Part shown: positions 5,113-10,870 of the stretch, piece after piece | How positions within the stretch are numbered: position 1 is the stretch's first letter | How the letters are laid out: every line of letters starts with the position of its first letter | Assembly (NCBI GenBank): GCA_030820665.1 | Contig: GCA_030820665.1_4852.1 | DNA length: 17,779 bases | Reading direction: 5' to 3' (one strand) | DNA from: a phage | Program-made: the position numbers and the translations under genes | The notes under the pieces: generated by a model | Told to the model about the DNA's origin: nothing | Database searches by the model: none | The model's input: the letters and a program-made list of their open reading frames with translations, nothing else

Positions 5113-5757
5113 TTAATCATCCAGTTTCACGCCTGGAATTTTTCCTGCTGCAATGGCTTCATAAATTAGCTTGGCCTCGTCCTCGCGCCTGTAATCTTGA
5201 GCTGCCATTTCTAACACCGCGCAGATAGACTCAAGTACAGCCTCATGCTTCTTTTCTGCTTCTGTGCGTAGTGGTTTTAGGCTTTCCGGTACGAAGCAGC
5301 ATGACCGACCAGCACCACCTTCATCCCAATAGCAAACAGCCACATCGTTTCCGTCCGTTGTTGTCTTGTGCGCTACAACTTCCATTTCAGTGCCAGCATC
5401 AGGAATCCAGTCATTGCAGTATCCTAACTTTGGATTAAAGAAGAATTCTACTTTTGCACCAACTGGCGGCAGGCCTTCTCCATTCCATGTCTGCTTTTGC
5501 AATGCTGCTAGCGCGGATTCATACAAGTCGCGAGTTATCATACAATAATCCGTGGCTACGCTGACATAGCGACCGGGTATGGGGATTGCCACGGTGTACT
5601 GAAATGGCACATCAAAACCATCGCTATATCCCTTTGGGAAACAAAAAGCAATTGTGATACTGTCACCATTGAAATCACCAACTCGACACCTCTCAGCACC
5701 ATCAGGCCACCCACCACGCTTAGGTAATTCTTGAACTAACAGGTCGATAAGTTTCAT
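5113..5757 (-). CDS. Hypothetical protein (214 aa), last gene of leftward 4-gene operon
   Basis: The start ATG overlaps the upstream stop (ATGA), with GGAGAA as the SD. It contains 'WNGEGLPPVGAKVEF', followed by 'LKPLRTEAEKK' and a C-terminal 'IYEAIAAGKIPGV'. I associate this pattern with uncharacterised accessory proteins of enterobacterial (pro)phages; no function is known to me. Confidence 0.7.
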   Translation of the reverse strand: MKLIDLLVQELPKRGGWPDGAERCRVGDFNGDSITIAFCFPKGYSDGFDVPFQYTVAIPIPGRYVSVATDYCMITRDLYESALAALQKQTWNGEGLPPVGAKVEFFFNPKLGYCNDWIPDAGTEMEVVAHKTTTDGNDVAVCYWDEGGAGRSCCFVPESLKPLRTEAEKKHEAVLESICAVLEMAAQDYRREDEAKLIYEAIAAGKIPGVKLDD

Positions 5758-6068
5758 TTTGTTTCTCCCAATGCTTTATTAACCGCGGCACGTGCATTAT
5801 CCAGAGCGCGACGCTTGCTTGATGTTGTCCAGCATTTTCCGGAGTGGTCGTCGTAGATTTCCAGAAGTTGCTGGAGTGCTGATAACAGGTCAGGAGATGC
5901 CGCTATTAGCCTTGCGTTATGCCATTGCTCGGTTTTATCACCGTTATATGTTGGAGTGAATGCAACCTCGACACCAATATCCGAGATAACATCTGGCGCG
6001 TTATCATCACCAACAACAACTTCCCATTTTCCATGCGTACCTTTAAATTCTTTCACATCCAACCTCAC
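5754..6068 (-). CDS. Hypothetical protein (104 aa)
   Basis: The GTG start at 6066-6068 overlaps the upstream stop (GTGA). It contains 'NARLIAASPDLLSALQQLLE', a motif common in uncharacterised phage proteins. Confidence 0.65.
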   Translation of the reverse strand: MRLDVKEFKGTHGKWEVVVGDDNAPDVISDIGVEVAFTPTYNGDKTEQWHNARLIAASPDLLSALQQLLEIYDDHSGKCWTTSSKRRALDNARAAVNKALGETK

Positions 6069-6208
6069 TTAATATACTCAACAATCTCAACTTCACGCAT
6101 CTGCACCAGGCCAAATGGTGCAACCACCTTACCGCACGGACGGATTTTGATTTGCTCAAGGTTGAACACTCCGCAGCGTCCGTTTTCTTTGAATTTGACC
6201 ATTACCAT
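6065..6208 (-). CDS. Hypothetical small protein (47 aa)
   Basis: Not in the ORF track. Read by hand on the minus strand: MVMVKFKENGRCGVFNLEQIKIRPCGKVVAPFGLVQMREVEIVEYIK. It starts 2 nt after the upstream stop, and its TGA overlaps the downstream GTG start. Confidence 0.5.
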   Translation of the reverse strand: MVMVKFKENGRCGVFNLEQIKIRPCGKVVAPFGLVQMREVEIVEYIK

Positions 6209-6210
6209 AA

Positions 6211-6369
6211 TTAATACCCGTTTTTCTTGGCTAATTGTTGCGCACGTTTCTTCGTGTACCCACAGGCCATCAGGCGCTTGACCTCGTTGCGGCGCCTTGC
6301 GAAATGGTACTCACGAGAATTAAATGCACATTCGTTGCTAAAGTTAACATTACGTGGATTCATCTTCAT
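6211..6369 (-). CDS. Hypothetical small basic protein (52 aa; 50 aa if it starts at 6363)
   Basis: Not in the ORF track. Translation: MKMNPRNVNFSNECAFNSREYHFARRRNEVKRLMACGYTKKRAQQLAKKNGY. GAGGTG lies immediately upstream, which favours the ATG at 6363. It is the first gene after the divergent promoter. Confidence 0.5.
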   Translation of the reverse strand: MKMNPRNVNFSNECAFNSREYHFARRRNEVKRLMACGYTKKRAQQLAKKNGY

Positions 6370-6384
6370 CACCTCATTCATCAC

Positions 6385-6441
6385 TTGATGTAGATACTAT
6401 GCACCAACAACCAATCTACGTCAACACCATTGTGATAGAAT
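6385..6441. promoter_or_regulatory. Divergent promoter region: interlocked leftward and rightward promoters plus an extended -10 for the lysis operon
   Basis: Leftward promoter: TTGACG (rc of 6419-6424), 17 nt, CATAGT (rc 6396-6401) or TAGTAT (rc 6394-6399), then CTACATCA (rc 6386-6393). Rightward promoter: TTGATG 6385-6390, 19 nt, ACCAAT 6410-6415, then CTACGTCAA 6416-6424. A second rightward element is TGaTAGAAT at 6433-6441. Confidence 0.55.
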
Positions 6442-6467
6442 TAATCATTATTTGAACTGGAGGCAGA

Positions 6468-6746
6468 ATGAAACTATCGCAACGAGGCGTGGAGACGTTT
6501 GGAATTACCGATGCCGTGAATATATCGCCTTACATCACTACCGAGACAACGCAGAATCAGTTCGACGCGCTGGCAAGTCTTGCCACCGACATTGGCATTT
6601 ACGCGTTCCGTAAATCAACGCTTCTGAAGAAGCACAACCTCCGCTGCTTCTCATGTGCTGTTGCGCATTTCATCGCGTGGGGCGAGAAGACTGGCGACAA
6701 AGCAAAACGCAAAGCTGAAAAAGAGGTTTACTGGTATGGCTATTAG
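6468..6746 (+). CDS. Degenerate GH24 (P22 gp19/T4 e-type) lysozyme-like ORF lacking the catalytic N-terminal region
   Basis: 92 aa, with GGAGG at 6459-6463. 'TQNQFDALASLATDIGIYAFRKSTLLKKHNLRCFSCAVAHFIAW' parallels the conserved C-terminal half of P22 gp19-type lysozymes ('NQNQYDALCSLIFNIGKSAFAGSTVLRQLNLKNYQAAADAFLLW', recalled from memory). The N-terminal 'EEGxRLxAY..D..G..T' catalytic segment is absent. The ORF overlaps the next gene by 11 nt. Confidence 0.6.
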   Translation: MKLSQRGVETFGITDAVNISPYITTETTQNQFDALASLATDIGIYAFRKSTLLKKHNLRCFSCAVAHFIAWGEKTGDKAKRKAEKEVYWYGY

Positions 6747-7200
6747 TAAAAACATGAAGGCGTTTCTGGATATGCTGGCGTACAGCGAGGGCACTGATAA
6801 CGGGCGGCAGAAAACCAATAATCATGGTTATGATGTGATTGTTGGCGGCTCACTGTTTACCGACTATTCCGACCACCCGCGCAAGCTGATTAGCCTGCCA
6901 AGGCTGGGCATTAAATCCACCGCCGCCGGTCGCTATCAGGTACTGGCTAAGTTTTATGATGCGTACAAAAAGCAATTGCGTTTACCGGACTTCTCCCCCG
7001 CATCGCAGGACGCCATTGCAATGCAGCTAATCCGTGAATGCAAGGCCACCGCTGATATTGAGGCTGGTCGCATTGCTGATGCCATCCATAAATGCCGCTC
7101 CCGCTGGGCCTCATTGCCGGGCGCTGGGTATGGTCAGCATGAGCAGAAGCTGGATAAGCTGATTCAGGTATACAAAGAGGCTGGCGGAGCTGTGGCATGA
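6736..7200 (+). CDS. R: Endolysin, lambda R-type lytic transglycosylase (GH104)
   Basis: ORF 6655-7200 trimmed to ATG 6736 (AAGAGG at 6721-6726). The 154-aa product is near-collinear with lambda R as I recall it: 'KAFLDMLAYSEGTDNGRQKTNNHGYDVIVGGSLFTDYSDHPRKL', 'AAGRYQ' and 'WASLPGAGYGQHE'. The catalytic Glu context 'SEGT' is retained. Confidence 0.92.
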   Translation: MAISKNMKAFLDMLAYSEGTDNGRQKTNNHGYDVIVGGSLFTDYSDHPRKLISLPRLGIKSTAAGRYQVLAKFYDAYKKQLRLPDFSPASQDAIAMQLIRECKATADIEAGRIADAIHKCRSRWASLPGAGYGQHEQKLDKLIQVYKEAGGAVA

Positions 7201-7436
7201 AAAAGCTAAGCAACTGGCTGCTCGCCGCGTGGATTTCATTCTGCTCGCTGTTACAACTATGGCCTGATGCAATGATGCATGTGTGGGTAATGATGCCGGA
7301 TGACCTGAAAGCAGCGCTACCGCTAATCGTGGTCAAAGGTGTGAGTTACTCAATTATGCTTGTCGGCATCATCGGCAAAATGCACGGCATGAGGAAGGAA
7401 AACCGGAGGCTGCGCAATGATGTCGATTCTCGTTAA
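7197..7436 (+). CDS. Putative holin (class II-like: two TM helices, basic C-terminal tail)
   Basis: 79 aa. The ATG overlaps the endolysin stop (ATGA), with GGAG at 7186-7189. TM1 is 'LSNWLLAAWISFCSLLQLW', TM2 is 'LPLIVVKGVSYSIMLVGIIG', and the tail is 'RKENRRLRNDVDSR'. The call rests on position between endolysin and spanins. I recognise no family. Confidence 0.55.
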   Translation: MKKLSNWLLAAWISFCSLLQLWPDAMMHVWVMMPDDLKAALPLIVVKGVSYSIMLVGIIGKMHGMRKENRRLRNDVDSR

Positions 7437-7908
7437 ATACTGGCGACCGCTGGCAATTATTATAATTGTTGCCGCTGGCGCGTTGTGGGTGGCAAATAAA
7501 GTGTCCGGTTATGGCGAGCAACAATATGCCGCCGGATACGCGAAGGCAGTCGCAGAACAGAAGGCCGCAGACGAACAAGAGGAGCAACGACGCAATGCAG
7601 AACTGCAAAAGATTCAGGCCGACGCACAGCAAAGGATTGATGCTGCGCGCAATGATGCTGTTAATGCTGCCGCTAAGTCTGGCAGGTTGCAGCAACAACT
7701 CACCAGTATCCGCAAGCAGCTCGTCGGATATTCCACCGCTGAGTCCATTGGCAACCCAGCCGCAGAAACCGGAGTTTTGCTTGCAGACGTGCTCCGCAAA
7801 TCTGTCGAAAGAAATCAACAGCTGGCAGATTACGCTGACAGGGCGAGAGAGGCAGGATTGACGTGTGAGGCACAGTATAATTCTCTGCGTAATAAAAAAG
7901 CCCCGTGA
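7417..7908 (+). CDS. Rz: i-spanin (Rz-like)
   Basis: GGAGG at 7404-7408. It has an N-terminal TM 'WRPLAIIIIVAAGALWVA', then a long Ala/Gln/Glu-rich coiled-coil periplasmic domain. It follows the endolysin and holin and contains an embedded lipoprotein ORF in the +1 frame. Confidence 0.85.
   Translation: MMSILVKYWRPLAIIIIVAAGALWVANKVSGYGEQQYAAGYAKAVAEQKAADEQEEQRRNAELQKIQADAQQRIDAARNDAVNAAAKSGRLQQQLTSIRKQLVGYSTAESIGNPAAETGVLLADVLRKSVERNQQLADYADRAREAGLTCEAQYNSLRNKKAP
7640..7861 (+). CDS. Rz1: o-spanin (Rz1-like lipoprotein), fully embedded in Rz in another frame
   Basis: It lies within ORF 7466-7861. Starting at ATG 7640 gives the signal peptide MLRAMMLLMLPLSLAGC with lipobox L-A-G-C. The mature part is Ser/Pro-rich ('CSNNSPVSASSSSDIPPLSPLATQPQKP'). 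ATG 7652 is an alternative start. Confidence 0.8.
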   Translation: MLRAMMLLMLPLSLAGCSNNSPVSASSSSDIPPLSPLATQPQKPEFCLQTCSANLSKEINSWQITLTGRERQD

Positions 7909-7922
7909 TGGGGCTTTGTTTT
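7897..7922. terminator. Bidirectional intrinsic terminator after the lysis cassette
   Basis: AAAGCCCC (7897-7904) pairs with GGGGCTTT (7910-7917) around a 5-nt loop that contains the Rz stop codon. An A-run lies upstream and GTTTT downstream. Convergent genes sit on both sides. Confidence 0.85.
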
Positions 7923-7942
7923 AACCTTCTCCGTAGCCAATG

Positions 7943-8320
7943 TCACGCATAAAGCGCCTCCATCTTGTACCCAAACATAATTGCATTCTGATGCTCAGTG
8001 CTACCAGAAAACACCAGATAGCGTTTACCTCGATTATCCGTAACGATGTAGGCAGCTGGTGAGTTTTCCTTCCTAAATCTGGCTTCGTCATCACTCCCTT
8101 CATACATCCTCCCACTCGCTGGCAGATACAAATCGAATGTTTGAATTTCCGTTCCGCTGCATTCATTGCTACGTTCATTGAACAGGATAGCCAATCTTGG
8201 GTTGCCATTGGAATGCTTTGCAGGGAATGCGATTCTCCAGCCATCGCACATATACTGACTTGGGTAGGATAGCCATGACTTACCGCGCCTACCCTCCGTA
8301 AGAATCGGCTTACTCGCCAT
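7943..8320 (-). CDS. Hypothetical protein (125 aa), last gene of leftward 5-gene operon
   Basis: ORF 7943-8368 trimmed to ATG 8320, where GGAGGA lies 5 nt upstream. It overlaps the upstream gene by 11 nt. I recognise no family. Confidence 0.6.
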   Translation of the reverse strand: MASKPILTEGRRGKSWLSYPSQYMCDGWRIAFPAKHSNGNPRLAILFNERSNECSGTEIQTFDLYLPASGRMYEGSDDEARFRKENSPAAYIVTDNRGKRYLVFSGSTEHQNAIMFGYKMEALYA

Positions 8321-8585
8321 TATGATCCTCCACAATCCGCACCAGTGAGCACTCAAGATTCGGTGCATTGTAATTACCAGCCAGAAACAGCACGCTACCA
8401 GTGCTAATAAGCACCTGCTTCGCGTTCGCCTGCGACAGATTCTGCACGATGAATTGCGCTGTTTCTGTGCCGATTTTCAGCACTGCGCTGCCGTCGCTGT
8501 TCAGTGATACAAGTTGTGCGGAAGTGTCAGTAATGTTGGTGAAGTTCGCGTTTCGCTGCGCGATTGTGATGTCGCAAAAAGACAT
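8310..8585 (-). CDS. Hypothetical protein (91 aa)
   Basis: GGAGAG lies 8 nt upstream, and the start overlaps the upstream stop (TAATG). I recognise no family. Confidence 0.6.
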   Translation of the reverse strand: MSFCDITIAQRNANFTNITDTSAQLVSLNSDGSAVLKIGTETAQFIVQNLSQANAKQVLISTGSVLFLAGNYNAPNLECSLVRIVEDHNGE

Positions 8586-8887
8586 TATTTAATCTCTCCG
8601 TTCAGTTCATTAACAATTAACGTTGCATAGCCAGCAATATCTTTCCAGCTGTCATCATAAGTCGGGTCGCCATTCAGAATGCGCCCAATCTTGTGCTGAA
8701 TCATGTCGAGCGCCTCGCGTTGACTTGGTGTGAGATTGCGCCAGCCATCTACCTTGCGCATCACATCTTTCAACTCCTGCATAATTTCAGCGCCGTCTTT
8801 GAATTTACCGTATCGACTACCGCGTTCGGTGATGAGTCGCTCTGTTGCGTCAGTATGGCGCTTATCGCCCGTGATTTGTGAACTCAT
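8585..8887 (-). CDS. Helical protein resembling the phage DUF6378-type family (function unknown)
   Basis: 100 aa. 'ERGSRYGKFKDGAEIMQEL....LTPSQREALDMIQHKIGRILNGDPTYDDSWKDIAGYATL' follows the pattern ER...YG....nf..ia.......lt...a..m...K..R......h.DSw.DiaGYA. I remember this pattern from a widespread uncharacterised phage family; the family name is from memory. Confidence 0.55.
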   Translation of the reverse strand: MSSQITGDKRHTDATERLITERGSRYGKFKDGAEIMQELKDVMRKVDGWRNLTPSQREALDMIQHKIGRILNGDPTYDDSWKDIAGYATLIVNELNGEIK

Positions 8888-9374
8888 TGTGATGCATTCT
8901 CCTGAATTCTTTTATTTTTGCTTCTGCTTCTCTTATGTCGGAAAAGTAACCAACTGTGAATCTTTTGCCATTTACTCCAACTCTTGCATGCCACTTGTTG
9001 TGCGATGAACTCCAGTTAACCCCCTTGATACCGCTAGTGTTGTTTTTGTTCATTGCTTTGTTGTGGCTATTCTCAAATTTGCTGGCCTCCCTTAAATTGC
9101 ACGCCCTGTTGTCATTGCGAATGCCATTAATGTGGTCAATCATTTCACTTGCTGGCGCGCCATGAATGCATATCCATGCCAATCTGTGAGCAAGAAAAGC
9201 CCTACCGCAAAGAATTATTTGCACATATCCATCTGGCTTTAAGTAGCCAGCCACACTCCCTTTTTCTGCAATCCTATTCCTTGTCTTTAGCCATTTAAAT
9301 TCCCCAGTTAGTGGATTGTAGTAAAGGTAACTCAATATAAACTCCCTACTCGGCTCATCTCTCCTATGCCTCAT
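8862..9374 (-). CDS. HNH homing endonuclease with C-terminal AP2 DNA-binding domain
   Basis: 170 aa. The HNH_3-type core is 'AHRLAWICIHG....IDHINGIRNDNRACNLREA'. The AP2 module is 'SGIKGVNWSSSHNKWHARVGVNGKRFTVGYFSDIREAEAKIKEFRRMHHNEF'. It overlaps the downstream gene by 26 nt and is visibly more A/T-rich than its neighbours. Confidence 0.9.
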   Translation of the reverse strand: MRHRRDEPSREFILSYLYYNPLTGEFKWLKTRNRIAEKGSVAGYLKPDGYVQIILCGRAFLAHRLAWICIHGAPASEMIDHINGIRNDNRACNLREASKFENSHNKAMNKNNTSGIKGVNWSSSHNKWHARVGVNGKRFTVGYFSDIREAEAKIKEFRRMHHNEFTNHGR

Positions 9375-9577
9375 TTCTCATCCTCTTTCATTGTCACCCT
9401 ATTATTCTCGTCAACACTGAAGTTGGCCCGAATCAAATCATACATATCTTCCTTAGGCATATCAGCCAGCGCCACATAGCAACGGGCGAAGTAGCGAACA
9501 TCACGGAGTGTCAGCGGTTGTCGCTTCTCCACAATGCTGGTGATAATGTCCATCGGCTCGCGTCGTGGTCTTGGCAT
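9371..9577 (-). CDS. Hypothetical protein (68 aa), first gene of leftward 5-gene operon
   Basis: AGGAG lies 8 nt upstream of ATG 9577, and the stop overlaps the HNH start (ATGA). I recognise no family. Confidence 0.6.
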   Translation of the reverse strand: MPRPRREPMDIITSIVEKRQPLTLRDVRYFARCYVALADMPKEDMYDLIRANFSVDENNRVTMKEDEK

Positions 9578-9601
9578 ATTTACTACTCCTTCTCGAAAAA
9601 C

Positions 9602-9654
9602 ATCTTGACGTTTCTACATCATTTAGTCAATGCTTGTTGACGTAGATTGTACCA
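9602..9654. promoter_or_regulatory. Divergent regulatory region with paired CTACRTCA / TTGAYGTAG elements
   Basis: Leftward: extended -10 TGgTACAAT (rc 9646-9654), followed by CTACGTCAA (rc 9637-9645). A second leftward candidate is TTGACT (rc 9625-9630), 17 nt, CAAGAT (rc 9602-9607). Rightward: TTGACG at 9605-9610 and 9637-9642 and TTCTACATCA at 9612-9621, but I could find no convincing rightward -10. Confidence 0.45.
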
Positions 9655-9676
9655 CAACGGAAAAGGTGATGTGGAA

Positions 9677-9874
9677 ATGCGATACAAAGAAATAGCAGCG
9701 AGATACCAGAAGGAAGTTCGCGAGGTTATGGAAATCCTTAACGTTCGCGAGGATACCATTAAGTTTGTGGAAACCGCCATGTGTTCACTGGCGCTTGAAG
9801 CGGAGGTTGCGGGTCGTGAAAAGGCTGACGAACTTATATCTGCGGTGGTTTATAGTTCAACCAGTAACGGTTGA
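9677..9874 (+). CDS. Hypothetical protein (65 aa), first gene of rightward accessory operon
   Basis: ORF 9647-9874 trimmed to ATG 9677 (AAGGTG at 9663-9668). It is helical and Glu-rich. I recognise no family. Confidence 0.55.
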   Translation: MRYKEIAARYQKEVREVMEILNVREDTIKFVETAMCSLALEAEVAGREKADELISAVVYSSTSNG

Positions 9875-9934
9875 AGATGAAGGTTATCTGTGCGTTGAGC
9901 ACGTTGTTATCAAATTCTACGGGAGAAATTATAA

Positions 9935-10129
9935 ATGGCGCATGACGAACTGTACGAAGAATCGTTAATCCAGAGGTTGAATGAAGTTGAGCGCACTCGC
10001 GAATGGCTGGAGTGCGAGTTACGAGAAGTGCGCAACCGCCTGCAACGCAAGCGCAGTCAGCAAAGAGATGTCATCGACTGGTCTGGGGGTACACCTAAAT
10101 TTAACAATCTGGGAGAATGGTTGAAATGA
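9935..10129 (+). CDS. Hypothetical coiled-coil protein (64 aa)
   Basis: GGGAGA lies upstream of ATG 9935. 'LNEVERTREWLECELREVRNRLQRKRSQQRD' looks like coiled coil. The stop overlaps the HNH start (ATGA). Confidence 0.55.
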   Translation: MAHDELYEESLIQRLNEVERTREWLECELREVRNRLQRKRSQQRDVIDWSGGTPKFNNLGEWLK

Positions 10130-10656
10130 GCAACATTAGTAAGGAAAGCATTTTAAAGTTCCTCCAGCATGATGAAAATACAGGAAACTTTCTATGGATT
10201 GATAATTTCTCAAGAAAATCAAAGAAAGGGAAGGTGGCTGGAGGTATTACATCGCATGGGTATTGGAGAATTCAACTCCCCATCGGGAGGTTTTACGCAC
10301 ACAGAATGGCGTGGATTGTTTGCAATGGAGATATACCAAACGGATATGAGATTGATCACATAAATGGGAACAAGAAAGATAATCGCATCAGCAACCTAAG
10401 ATTGGTCACAAGAGGTCAAAATGTTATGAATGTAGGCGTGAAAAACAATAATACAAGCGGAGTTAAGGATGTTGTTTGGGACTCTTCGCGAGAAAGGTGG
10501 AGGGTTCAAATTACAGCCAATGGCAAGCATTATTATGGAGGTAGATTCTCGTCAATAACACAAGCAAAAGAGGAGAGGAACAGGCTCATAAAGATGGTTC
10601 ACGGGAAATTTTTGAATACAAAAGGTGAGCAATATGACACTACTAATGAACGATGA
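10126..10656 (+). CDS. HNH homing endonuclease with C-terminal AP2 DNA-binding domain
   Basis: ORF 10117-10656. ATG 10126 is preferred (GGGAGA at 10111-10116, 9-nt spacing). Motifs are 'AHRMAWIVCNG....IDHINGNKKDNRISNLRLV' and 'SGVKDVVWDSSRERWRVQITANGKHYYGGRFSSITQA'. It is a diverged paralogue of 8862-9374(-) and is A/T-rich; a hand count of one 60-nt line gives about 42% GC, against about 57% for a line in the decoration-like gene (14101-14160). Confidence 0.9.
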   Translation: MSNISKESILKFLQHDENTGNFLWIDNFSRKSKKGKVAGGITSHGYWRIQLPIGRFYAHRMAWIVCNGDIPNGYEIDHINGNKKDNRISNLRLVTRGQNVMNVGVKNNNTSGVKDVVWDSSRERWRVQITANGKHYYGGRFSSITQAKEERNRLIKMVHGKFLNTKGEQYDTTNER

Positions 10657-10870
10657 GAAATTACTTGAATGCCCGTTTTGTGGTTGTGATGACGTAAGTG
10701 TTATTGATGACGGCGAATGGTTGCACGTTGAGTGCGGAGATTGTTTTTGCCGCACTGACTCGTATTGCTGCGCATCCACGGCAATGAAGAAATGGAACAC
10801 AAGAGGTGGACACCTCTACACTTCCGACGACTTCAATCAGGCAGCAGAGGAGCGTGATTATGGACTATAA
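10634..10870 (+). CDS. lar: Lar/RalR-family restriction-alleviation protein candidate (zinc-ribbon)
   Basis: ORF 10625-10870. ATG 10634 has AGGTGA 6 nt upstream. 'LLECPFCGCDDVSVIDDGEWLHVECGDCFCRTDSYCCASTAMKKWNTR' follows the Rac RalR/Lar pattern as I recall it (KPCPFCGC..V.V......Y...C.GC..RT.......A...WNKR). It overlaps the HNH 3' end by 23 nt and the next gene by 11 nt. Confidence 0.75.
   Translation: MTLLMNDEKLLECPFCGCDDVSVIDDGEWLHVECGDCFCRTDSYCCASTAMKKWNTRGGHLYTSDDFNQAAEERDYGL

Follow-up and report, generated by a model that had tools for sequence, protein, structure and literature searches.

Probable replacement of the front of a two-domain DUF6378 gene by an HNH endonuclease cassette in a phage accessory operon

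How does a free-standing endonuclease gene come to overlap the start of another phage gene, and what becomes of the gene that it overlaps? These questions are raised by a leftward operon of five genes at positions 7943-9577 of a phage contig (GenBank assembly GCA_030820665.1, contig GCA_030820665.1_4852.1; the whole stretch analyzed, 17,779 nt, is called the window), in which a gene for a predicted HNH endonuclease overlaps the 5′ end of a gene for a DUF6378 protein. A previous reading of the window, made from the sequence only, had taken the HNH gene for a secondary insertion into a pre-existing four-gene unit. We find that the secondary arrival holds, as the HNH gene is absent from ~164 of 167 related phage records, but that the insertion was not a clean one, since 222 bp were replaced. 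We consider it likely that an HNH homing endonuclease cassette replaced the front of a two-domain DUF6378 gene in a four-gene accessory operon, and that the rear domain is re-expressed.

The operon consists of five minus-strand reading frames, at 9577-9371 (gene 1, 68 aa), 9374-8862 (gene 2, the HNH gene, 170 aa), 8887-8585 (gene 3, the DUF6378 gene, 100 aa), 8585-8310 (gene 4, 91 aa) and 8320-7943 (gene 5, 125 aa), and successive genes overlap by 4 nt (ATGA), 26 nt, 1 nt (TAATG) and 11 nt. The coordinates and overlaps proposed by the sequence-only reading are thus borne out, both by the open reading frames (ORFs) and by the coding sequences (CDS) in GenBank: the records of Escherichia phage vB_Eco_ZCEC08 (PP213477) and Salmonella phage vB_SenS_ST1UNAM (OQ469755), which are 99.8% identical to the window over 7800-9800, annotate the same five CDS. 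Approximately 165 further records of Salmonella, Escherichia, Klebsiella and Shigella phages match the same stretch partially, at 85-94% identity; they belong to the genera Skatevirus, Swiduovirus, Saltrevirus and relatives. The host phage of the operon is a siphophage of the Skatevirus/Swiduovirus type.

Comparison to HNH-less relatives delimits what arrived and what was lost. DNA homology to swi2, Bas81, VSt472 and AB4P2 ends at position 8853 and resumes at 9386 (blastn breakpoints), such that a minus-strand cassette of 532 bp (8854-9385), without counterpart in these relatives, stands in place of 222 bp in swi2. The cassette carries its own Shine-Dalgarno sequence (GAGGA), the HNH ORF and an 8-nt trailer. 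At the upstream junction, it appends four codons (EDEK) to gene 1 and brings both the GAGGA and the HNH start, which overlaps the end of gene 1 as ATGA; at the downstream junction, homology restarts 8 nt past the HNH stop, at the codons for DATE(R/Q)LITERG. The 222 bp that were replaced encode 74 residues, the N-terminal alpha/beta domain and the flexible linker of the two-domain DUF6378 protein. We found no direct repeats flanking the cassette ends, and on this ground we rejected transposition as its origin.

The remaining gene is a stand-alone DUF6378 domain (gene 3, 8585-8887, minus strand). Residues 1-12 of its product are read from the HNH 3′ end and the trailer, while homology to the 163-aa two-domain protein of relatives begins at residue 13 and covers residues 76-163 of that protein. 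Instead of the 100-aa gene, HNH-less relatives have a DUF6378 gene of 159-175 aa directly after a 64-aa first gene, and the C-terminal 88-89 residues of its product are 84-97% identical to the window protein. The family assignment made from sequence inspection is upheld by the Pfam model (DUF6378, PF19905; 30.4 bits against a cut-off of 27.1, residues 14-91), and the 100-aa protein spans only positions 74-163 of the 163-position phrog_17775 profile. In an AlphaFold model of the 100-aa protein (pLDDT 90.6), all five helices are present. The model of the 163-aa form has an N-terminal alpha/beta domain (residues 1-60, pLDDT 83-95), a disordered linker (62-74, pLDDT below 50), and then the helical DUF6378 domain; since its pTM is low (0.42), the two domains are likely to be independent. 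Because the cut falls at this domain boundary, a complete DUF6378 domain survives. Thus, alignments and models together indicate that the cassette removed exactly one domain and its linker and left the helical DUF6378 domain whole.

Gene 2 (8862-9374, minus strand) is predicted to encode a free-standing HNH endonuclease of 170 aa, which carries an HNH_3 domain at its N-terminus and an AP2-like region at its C-terminus. Of the HNH-AP2 label given to it previously, the first half stands (HNH_3, PF13392; 42.1 bits against a cut-off of 24.8), but the match behind the second falls short of Pfam's own threshold (AP2, PF00847; E = 9.7e-5, 23 bits, below the gathering score of 33.3). The protein matches phrog_99 (E = 3e-64), and its stretch DHINGIRNDNRACNL aligns weakly (E = 0.14) with the catalytic region of I-HmuI (1U3E), across the DH..N..NL stretch. 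PADLOC returned only a weak homing-endonuclease match for it. The gene had also been described as A/T-rich, which is true only mildly: its GC content is 42.1%, compared to 47.4-50.0% in the four neighboring genes and 47.3% in the window.

This HNH gene is rare, and wherever we see it the arrangement is the same. It occurs in 3 of 50,697 phage records (ZCEC08, ST1UNAM and EcoIv28_Lewi, hereafter Lewi) with 99.4-100% protein identity; beyond these, no phage match reaches 48%. DUF6378 alleles of 100 aa are found in five metagenomic protein clusters, and four metagenomic contigs, representing three distinct genomes, all have the order 68/69-aa gene, 170-aa HNH gene, 100-aa gene; every 100-aa allele examined follows the same 170-aa HNH. 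The same cassette junctions are found in six genomes, that is, in at least five besides the window. The gene content downstream differs among the HNH-bearing metagenomic contigs, and in Lewi.

Sequence divergence points to a cassette that is younger than its surroundings. The window and Lewi are 97.9% identical in the cassette, compared to 90.5% and 92.7% in its two flanks (Fisher P = 2e-6). Among five genomes, synonymous divergence (dS) is 0.09-0.27 for the HNH gene, compared to 0.39-0.64 for the DUF6378 segment and 0.15-0.51 for the 68-aa gene, such that the HNH values are two to five times lower than those of the flanks. The ratio of nonsynonymous to synonymous divergence (dN/dS) in these genomes is 0.03-0.10 for both the HNH gene and the DUF6378 segment; a ratio this low argues that the HNH protein is under constraint, as for an active mobile nuclease gene.

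A second gene for an HNH_3 (AP2-like) endonuclease, 41% identical to the first, lies on the plus strand at 10117-10656, with its flank reaching to 10780. Its cassette (10132-10780) stands in place of 156 bp of swi2 and brings with it a diverged 5′ half for the Lar-like zinc-ribbon gene downstream, whose new start (10634) lies 23 nt inside the 3′ end of the second HNH gene, an overlap and restart in the style of the first cassette.

The site at which the first cassette sits is itself highly variable. In the 120 closest DUF6378 clusters, the domain is 84-97% identical to the window protein, and the sequence that precedes it falls into at least eight classes, the HNH-derived one included. Clustering of these N-terminal sequences gave nine groups, corresponding to at least eight classes and a 108-aa form in which the N-terminal domain is simply deleted and nothing has been inserted. 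Several classes have in common only the linker and framing motifs (M-K-x-W/Y-K-Y-L-K-G...DF.G, ...IA.REP). At the position of the cassette junction, SeSz-2 has a different extra gene, of 60 aa. By these comparisons, the N-terminal slot of the DUF6378 gene is hypervariable, a recombination hot spot that has received many unrelated modules.

How, then, did the cassette enter this slot? Homing is the most likely mechanism that we infer. The endonuclease would cut HNH-less genomes near this site during co-infection, and repair would copy the cassette, with homology arms provided by the 68-aa gene and the DUF6378-domain DNA, both of which are conserved. The non-homologous N-terminal module between the arms would be lost in the repair, and the DUF6378 domain would be re-expressed from the ATG and Shine-Dalgarno sequence in the HNH 3′ end, by way of the 26-nt overlap. 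The presence in the window of a second HNH cassette with the same overlap-and-restart style favors homing. Several observations weigh against the account as a whole. No co-conversion tract is visible, as the window and Lewi already differ within 6 nt of either end of the cassette; this would be unusual after recent homing, although the lack of a tract is compatible both with homing and with its absence. Exchange at similar boundaries is also seen for N-terminal modules that have no endonuclease, so ordinary recombination could have moved the cassette. As for the truncated DUF6378 gene, its low dN/dS may stem largely from divergence among full-length alleles that was later recombined in. Lastly, DUF6378 has no relative in the PDB by sequence or profile, and no experimental or structural homolog.

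We considered that the cassette might have been moved by ordinary homologous or illegitimate recombination at an existing hot spot, with the HNH gene as a passenger module in a variable slot. The at least seven other N-terminal classes and the deletion form, which occupy the same slot between the same conserved flanks, are what such recombination would produce, as is the 60-aa gene of SeSz-2 at the same junction, and the lack of both a co-conversion tract beside the cassette and direct repeats at its flanks is in keeping with it. However, the HNH gene is under purifying selection with its catalytic stretch intact, as expected of an active selfish nuclease, and the cassette is younger than both of its flanks, in backgrounds that have diverged. 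Moreover, the related second HNH cassette brought a diverged flank with it, which is typical of homing. We therefore regard a mere passenger as unlikely, while it survives better than the other alternatives.

A separate question is whether the DUF6378 domain left behind by the cassette is still expressed. The 100-aa gene restarts at an ATG with an AGGAG Shine-Dalgarno sequence 11 nt upstream, both inside the 3′ end of the HNH gene. If this ORF were a non-functional remnant, its frame would persist only through the recency of the event. Such a remnant would fit the loss of 74 residues that include a confidently folded domain, as well as the long (11 nt) Shine-Dalgarno spacing, and the low dN/dS could have been inherited from full-length alleles by recombination. 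In contrast, all eight distinct HNH-linked DUF6378 alleles retain the full open frame, compared to 1-5 stop-creating changes expected under neutrality at the cassette's own divergence, and the cut falls exactly at the domain boundary, with the first helix kept. Furthermore, since the 108-aa deletion form exists and other phages most commonly encode DUF6378 as a stand-alone protein of 84-125 aa, the domain apparently works alone. We thus consider a dead remnant improbable, and conclude from the reading frames that the 100-aa DUF6378 product is probably still made.

Finally, it is very improbable that a stand-alone DUF6378 gene behind the HNH gene is ancestral and that two-domain proteins arose by later N-terminal fusions: the stand-alone architecture is the commonest in distant phages, but 111 of the 120 nearest clusters are at least 150 residues long (two-domain length) and only 5 are HNH-linked, the HNH gene is younger than its flanks, and the first 12 residues of the 100-aa protein come from the HNH 3′ end and trailer and have no counterpart in other DUF6378 proteins.

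Replacement by a homing cassette, followed by re-expression of the rear domain, also accords with the composition of the operon in relatives. HNH-less relatives keep the order 64-aa gene, DUF6378 gene, 102-aa gene and small DUF8272-type gene, with the four-gene unit present in VSt472 and in the relatives L009 and L012; an unrelated gene order, which would have spoken against the earlier proposal, was not seen. Across relatives, the operon comprises three to six genes. These orders are best explained by a putative ancestral operon of four genes, encoding the 64-aa protein, the two-domain DUF6378 protein, the 102-aa protein and the small DUF8272-type protein.

The signals around the operon are those expected of a single transcription unit. 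A Shine-Dalgarno-like sequence lies 5-11 nt upstream of each of the five starts. A consensus scan identified a candidate leftward sigma-70 promoter at 9646-9675 (minus strand; TCCACA, an 18-nt spacer and a TG-extended TACAAT) in the divergent intergenic, regulatory region; its hexamers and the TGgTACAAT are conserved in eight relatives, while promoter-like consensus matches in 9600-9680 are no commoner than in shuffled sequence. The scan gave a further promoter-like match inside gene 1 (9465-9437). At the other end, an intrinsic terminator hairpin at 7897-7917, with an 8-bp stem (5 G-C pairs) followed by a T run, would serve both strands, being common to the leftward operon and the convergent lysis cassette. 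The hairpin bears out the terminator proposed previously, and in the relative ASO78B terminators are annotated on both strands at the equivalent place. The 61-nt stretch around the hairpin folds at -15.4 kcal/mol (z = -2.2), and the hairpin is the only minus-strand terminator-like site within 7300-10300. The five genes thus share one strand, overlapping frames, conserved upstream promoter elements and one downstream terminator, with no internal terminator-like site, and from the gene overlaps we infer that they are co-transcribed. No RNA family matched at E up to 1 within 7300-10300 (Rfam), and the window contains no tRNA.

The intergenic region from which the two first genes diverge (9578-9646) also contains a TTGACT that is invariant, together with inverted repeats (GTCAA...TTGAC), and most relatives have the palindrome GTCAATA-AG-TATTGAC (7-bp arms) there. 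These inverted repeats look like a putative operator for a regulator.

The other genes of the operon had been called ORFans, which proved too strong. The 68-aa protein of gene 1 (9371-9577, minus strand; phrog_14963, E = 3e-43) is found in 207 phage records of the lineage, and in HNH-less relatives, which lack the four EDEK codons supplied by the cassette, it ends ...VTMK at 64 aa. The 91-aa protein of gene 4 (8310-8585, minus strand; phrog_16624, E = 1e-55) corresponds to 102 aa in relatives, from which its C-terminal tail differs; it has 53 clusters, all at 53% identity or more, and those with a source name come from enterobacterial phages. Rather than ORFans, both are lineage-restricted families of dozens to hundreds of members, confined by these searches to this phage lineage.

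Gene 5 (7943-8320, minus strand) combines a rare N-terminal module of 87 aa with a conserved C-terminal module of 38 aa (PAAYIVTDNRGKRYLVF.GS.EH.NA.MFGY). Its longest ORF begins at 8368, but a Shine-Dalgarno sequence (GGAGGA, 5 nt upstream) is present only for the ATG at 8320. The 125-aa protein matches phrog_34266 over residues 88-124 only (E = 1.6e-11), and homologous 51-aa proteins carry a precomputed label, DUF8272 (PF26839), for which our own Pfam scan found no match in either the 125-aa protein or the 51-aa protein of Bas81. In an alignment of its relatives, the 38-residue module (DUF8272/phrog_34266) stands behind unrelated N-termini of ~10-90 residues; thus, gene 5 is built like the DUF6378 gene. 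The protein is therefore no pure ORFan, as its last 38 residues form a conserved module and only the first 87 are rare: this segment occurs in only 2 of 50,697 phage records and in four metagenomic clusters. The rare module corresponds to 269 bp (8060-8328, minus strand; blastn breakpoints) that encode residues 1-87 as well as the altered tail of the 91-aa protein, and that replace 53 bp of Bas81. The 68-, 91- and 125-aa proteins had no match in Pfam, NCBIfam, PADLOC or the PDB. A defense or anti-defense assignment was considered and set aside, as NCBIfam gave nothing and PADLOC only the weak homing-endonuclease match of the HNH protein.

We also asked what the surviving DUF6378 domain might do. 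The family, which occurs in phages and bacteria, is large (6,666 representatives at 50% clustering). In an alignment of 74 diverse relatives, all of which match DUF6378 by Pfam, K66, R69, G73, D83 and G86 are invariant and an NGDPxYxDSW loop is conserved. A Foldseek search of BFVD matched the predicted domain to DUF6378 proteins (E down to 8e-10, probability 1.00); the other matches were one entry labeled Nmad1 (nucleotide modification associated domain 1) and weak ones to parts of phage proteins that bear HAD or PNKP phosphatase annotations. A Pfam scan of 40 long representatives for partner domains yielded DUF6378 and no further family. The neighbors of DUF6378 genes in ~55 other viral contigs are mostly genes of replication, recombination and nucleotide metabolism (counted with no background control), including SNF2 and DEAD helicases, PolA, RNR, ThyX, DHFR, dCTP deaminase, methylases and integrases, which suggests a DNA- or nucleotide-related role. 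Our best guess, held with low confidence, is that the domain binds a ligand of the nucleic-acid or nucleotide type, or a host protein. The earlier suggestion that it binds or hydrolyzes nucleotides has no direct support: we find no PDB relative, and a MazG-like fold is not supported, as neither profile nor structural similarity to four-helix enzymes of the MazG/dUTPase type was found. In the literature, we found only annotation mentions of DUF6378 or Nmad1. HNH_3 is among the commonest neighbor families of DUF6378 genes in other phages (5 of 146 neighbors). A phmmer search for recurrent HNH-DUF6378 adjacency with the two HNH proteins of the window matched only one distinct locus, with the genes 500-650 nt apart and non-adjacent, and we claim no such link in other phages.

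A bolder idea, to which we give little credence, is that the two-domain DUF6378 protein is an arms-race factor, for example in anti-defense or host takeover, with a helical effector and a hypervariable N-terminal specificity domain, and that the homing endonuclease in that slot helps to reshuffle it. If this were true, homing would drive domain swapping within a gene, and the operon, whose last gene is built alike, would act as a set of cassettes through which the front ends of proteins are exchanged.

As a whole, the locus is a mosaic accessory region of the routine kind, in a phage that was already sequenced and annotated. In a recent paper, the genera to which these phages belong are treated as a single mosaic group that carries several HNH genes (PMC11769527). 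The ZCEC08 record places the operon between the lysis cassette and a block of small rightward genes, both of which are embedded between head-morphogenesis and capsid genes; the block includes a Lar-like anti-restriction gene. The interval between the spanin gene and the operon holds a DUF1353 gene in swi2 (2474-2704 of locus L002), Lewi (1944-2285 of L004) and L009 (3789-4130) that is not in the window, which again marks this interval as a plasticity zone. In some relatives, such as Bas81 (2764-2970 of L003), the leftward operon ends with a crAss001_48-related protein (PF21825, E = 3e-16), which the window does not have. In the close relative L009 (a Logan contig, ERR2241755), a gene with OrfB_IS605/Cas12f1-like TNB domains (5513-6327), of a TnpB-type IS element, adjoins the lysis cassette. 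Upstream of the holin, at ~6317-7049 of the window (ZCEC08 6522-7254), the GenBank record has two adjoining, overlapping "lysozyme" CDS (92 and 154 aa), compared to a single 146-aa endolysin in Bas81; these may represent a two-part or duplicated lysis enzyme.

Under the homing account, the locus illustrates that a homing endonuclease gene can land in a coding region and remove a whole domain, with the remaining domain staying expressible because the cassette brings a new ribosome-binding site and start codon. Selfish nucleases would thereby have a concrete way to remodel phage proteins at their domain boundaries. The natural variants, with a full N-terminal domain, with none, or with the HNH gene instead, are ready material for probing the role of DUF6378.

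Compared to known systems, the event adds a neat new example to a known kind of phage gene shuffling. HNH endonucleases with AP2 domains have been described at the boundaries of exchanged segments in phages (the "IPA-HNH" class; Barth, Dunham and Seed 2023, PMC10448857), and our case fits this description, as the cassette sits at such a boundary. Like members of that class and like other HNH_3 enzymes such as I-HmuI of phage SPO1, the window protein is small (170 aa), with an HNH_3 domain in its N-terminal part and an AP2-like region in its C-terminal part; like the class, its gene is sporadic among near-identical phages, lies between conserved and variable DNA, is lower in GC than its neighbors, and is younger than its flanks. 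In contrast to the class, it lies inside a coding region rather than between genes, substitutes for a protein domain, and supplies the start codon and Shine-Dalgarno sequence to the domain that remains; moreover, its AP2 match is sub-threshold and it shows no visible co-conversion tract. Gene 3 shares with the DUF6378 family the invariant K, R, G, D and G, the NGDPxYxDSW loop and a predicted five-helix domain, but in this lineage the domain normally follows a variable N-terminal alpha/beta domain, in place of which the window copy has 12 residues read from the cassette. MazG-like NTP pyrophosphohydrolases and Nmad1/DUF1599 proteins resemble DUF6378 in being small helical domains with conserved acidic and basic residues, often in nucleotide-metabolism neighborhoods. 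As in other mosaic accessory ("moron" or plasticity) regions, the genes are small and overlapping, content varies (three to six genes), conserved modules form the exchange boundaries, and a Lar-like gene is nearby; unlike regions in which whole genes are exchanged, two genes of the window show exchange within the coding sequence.

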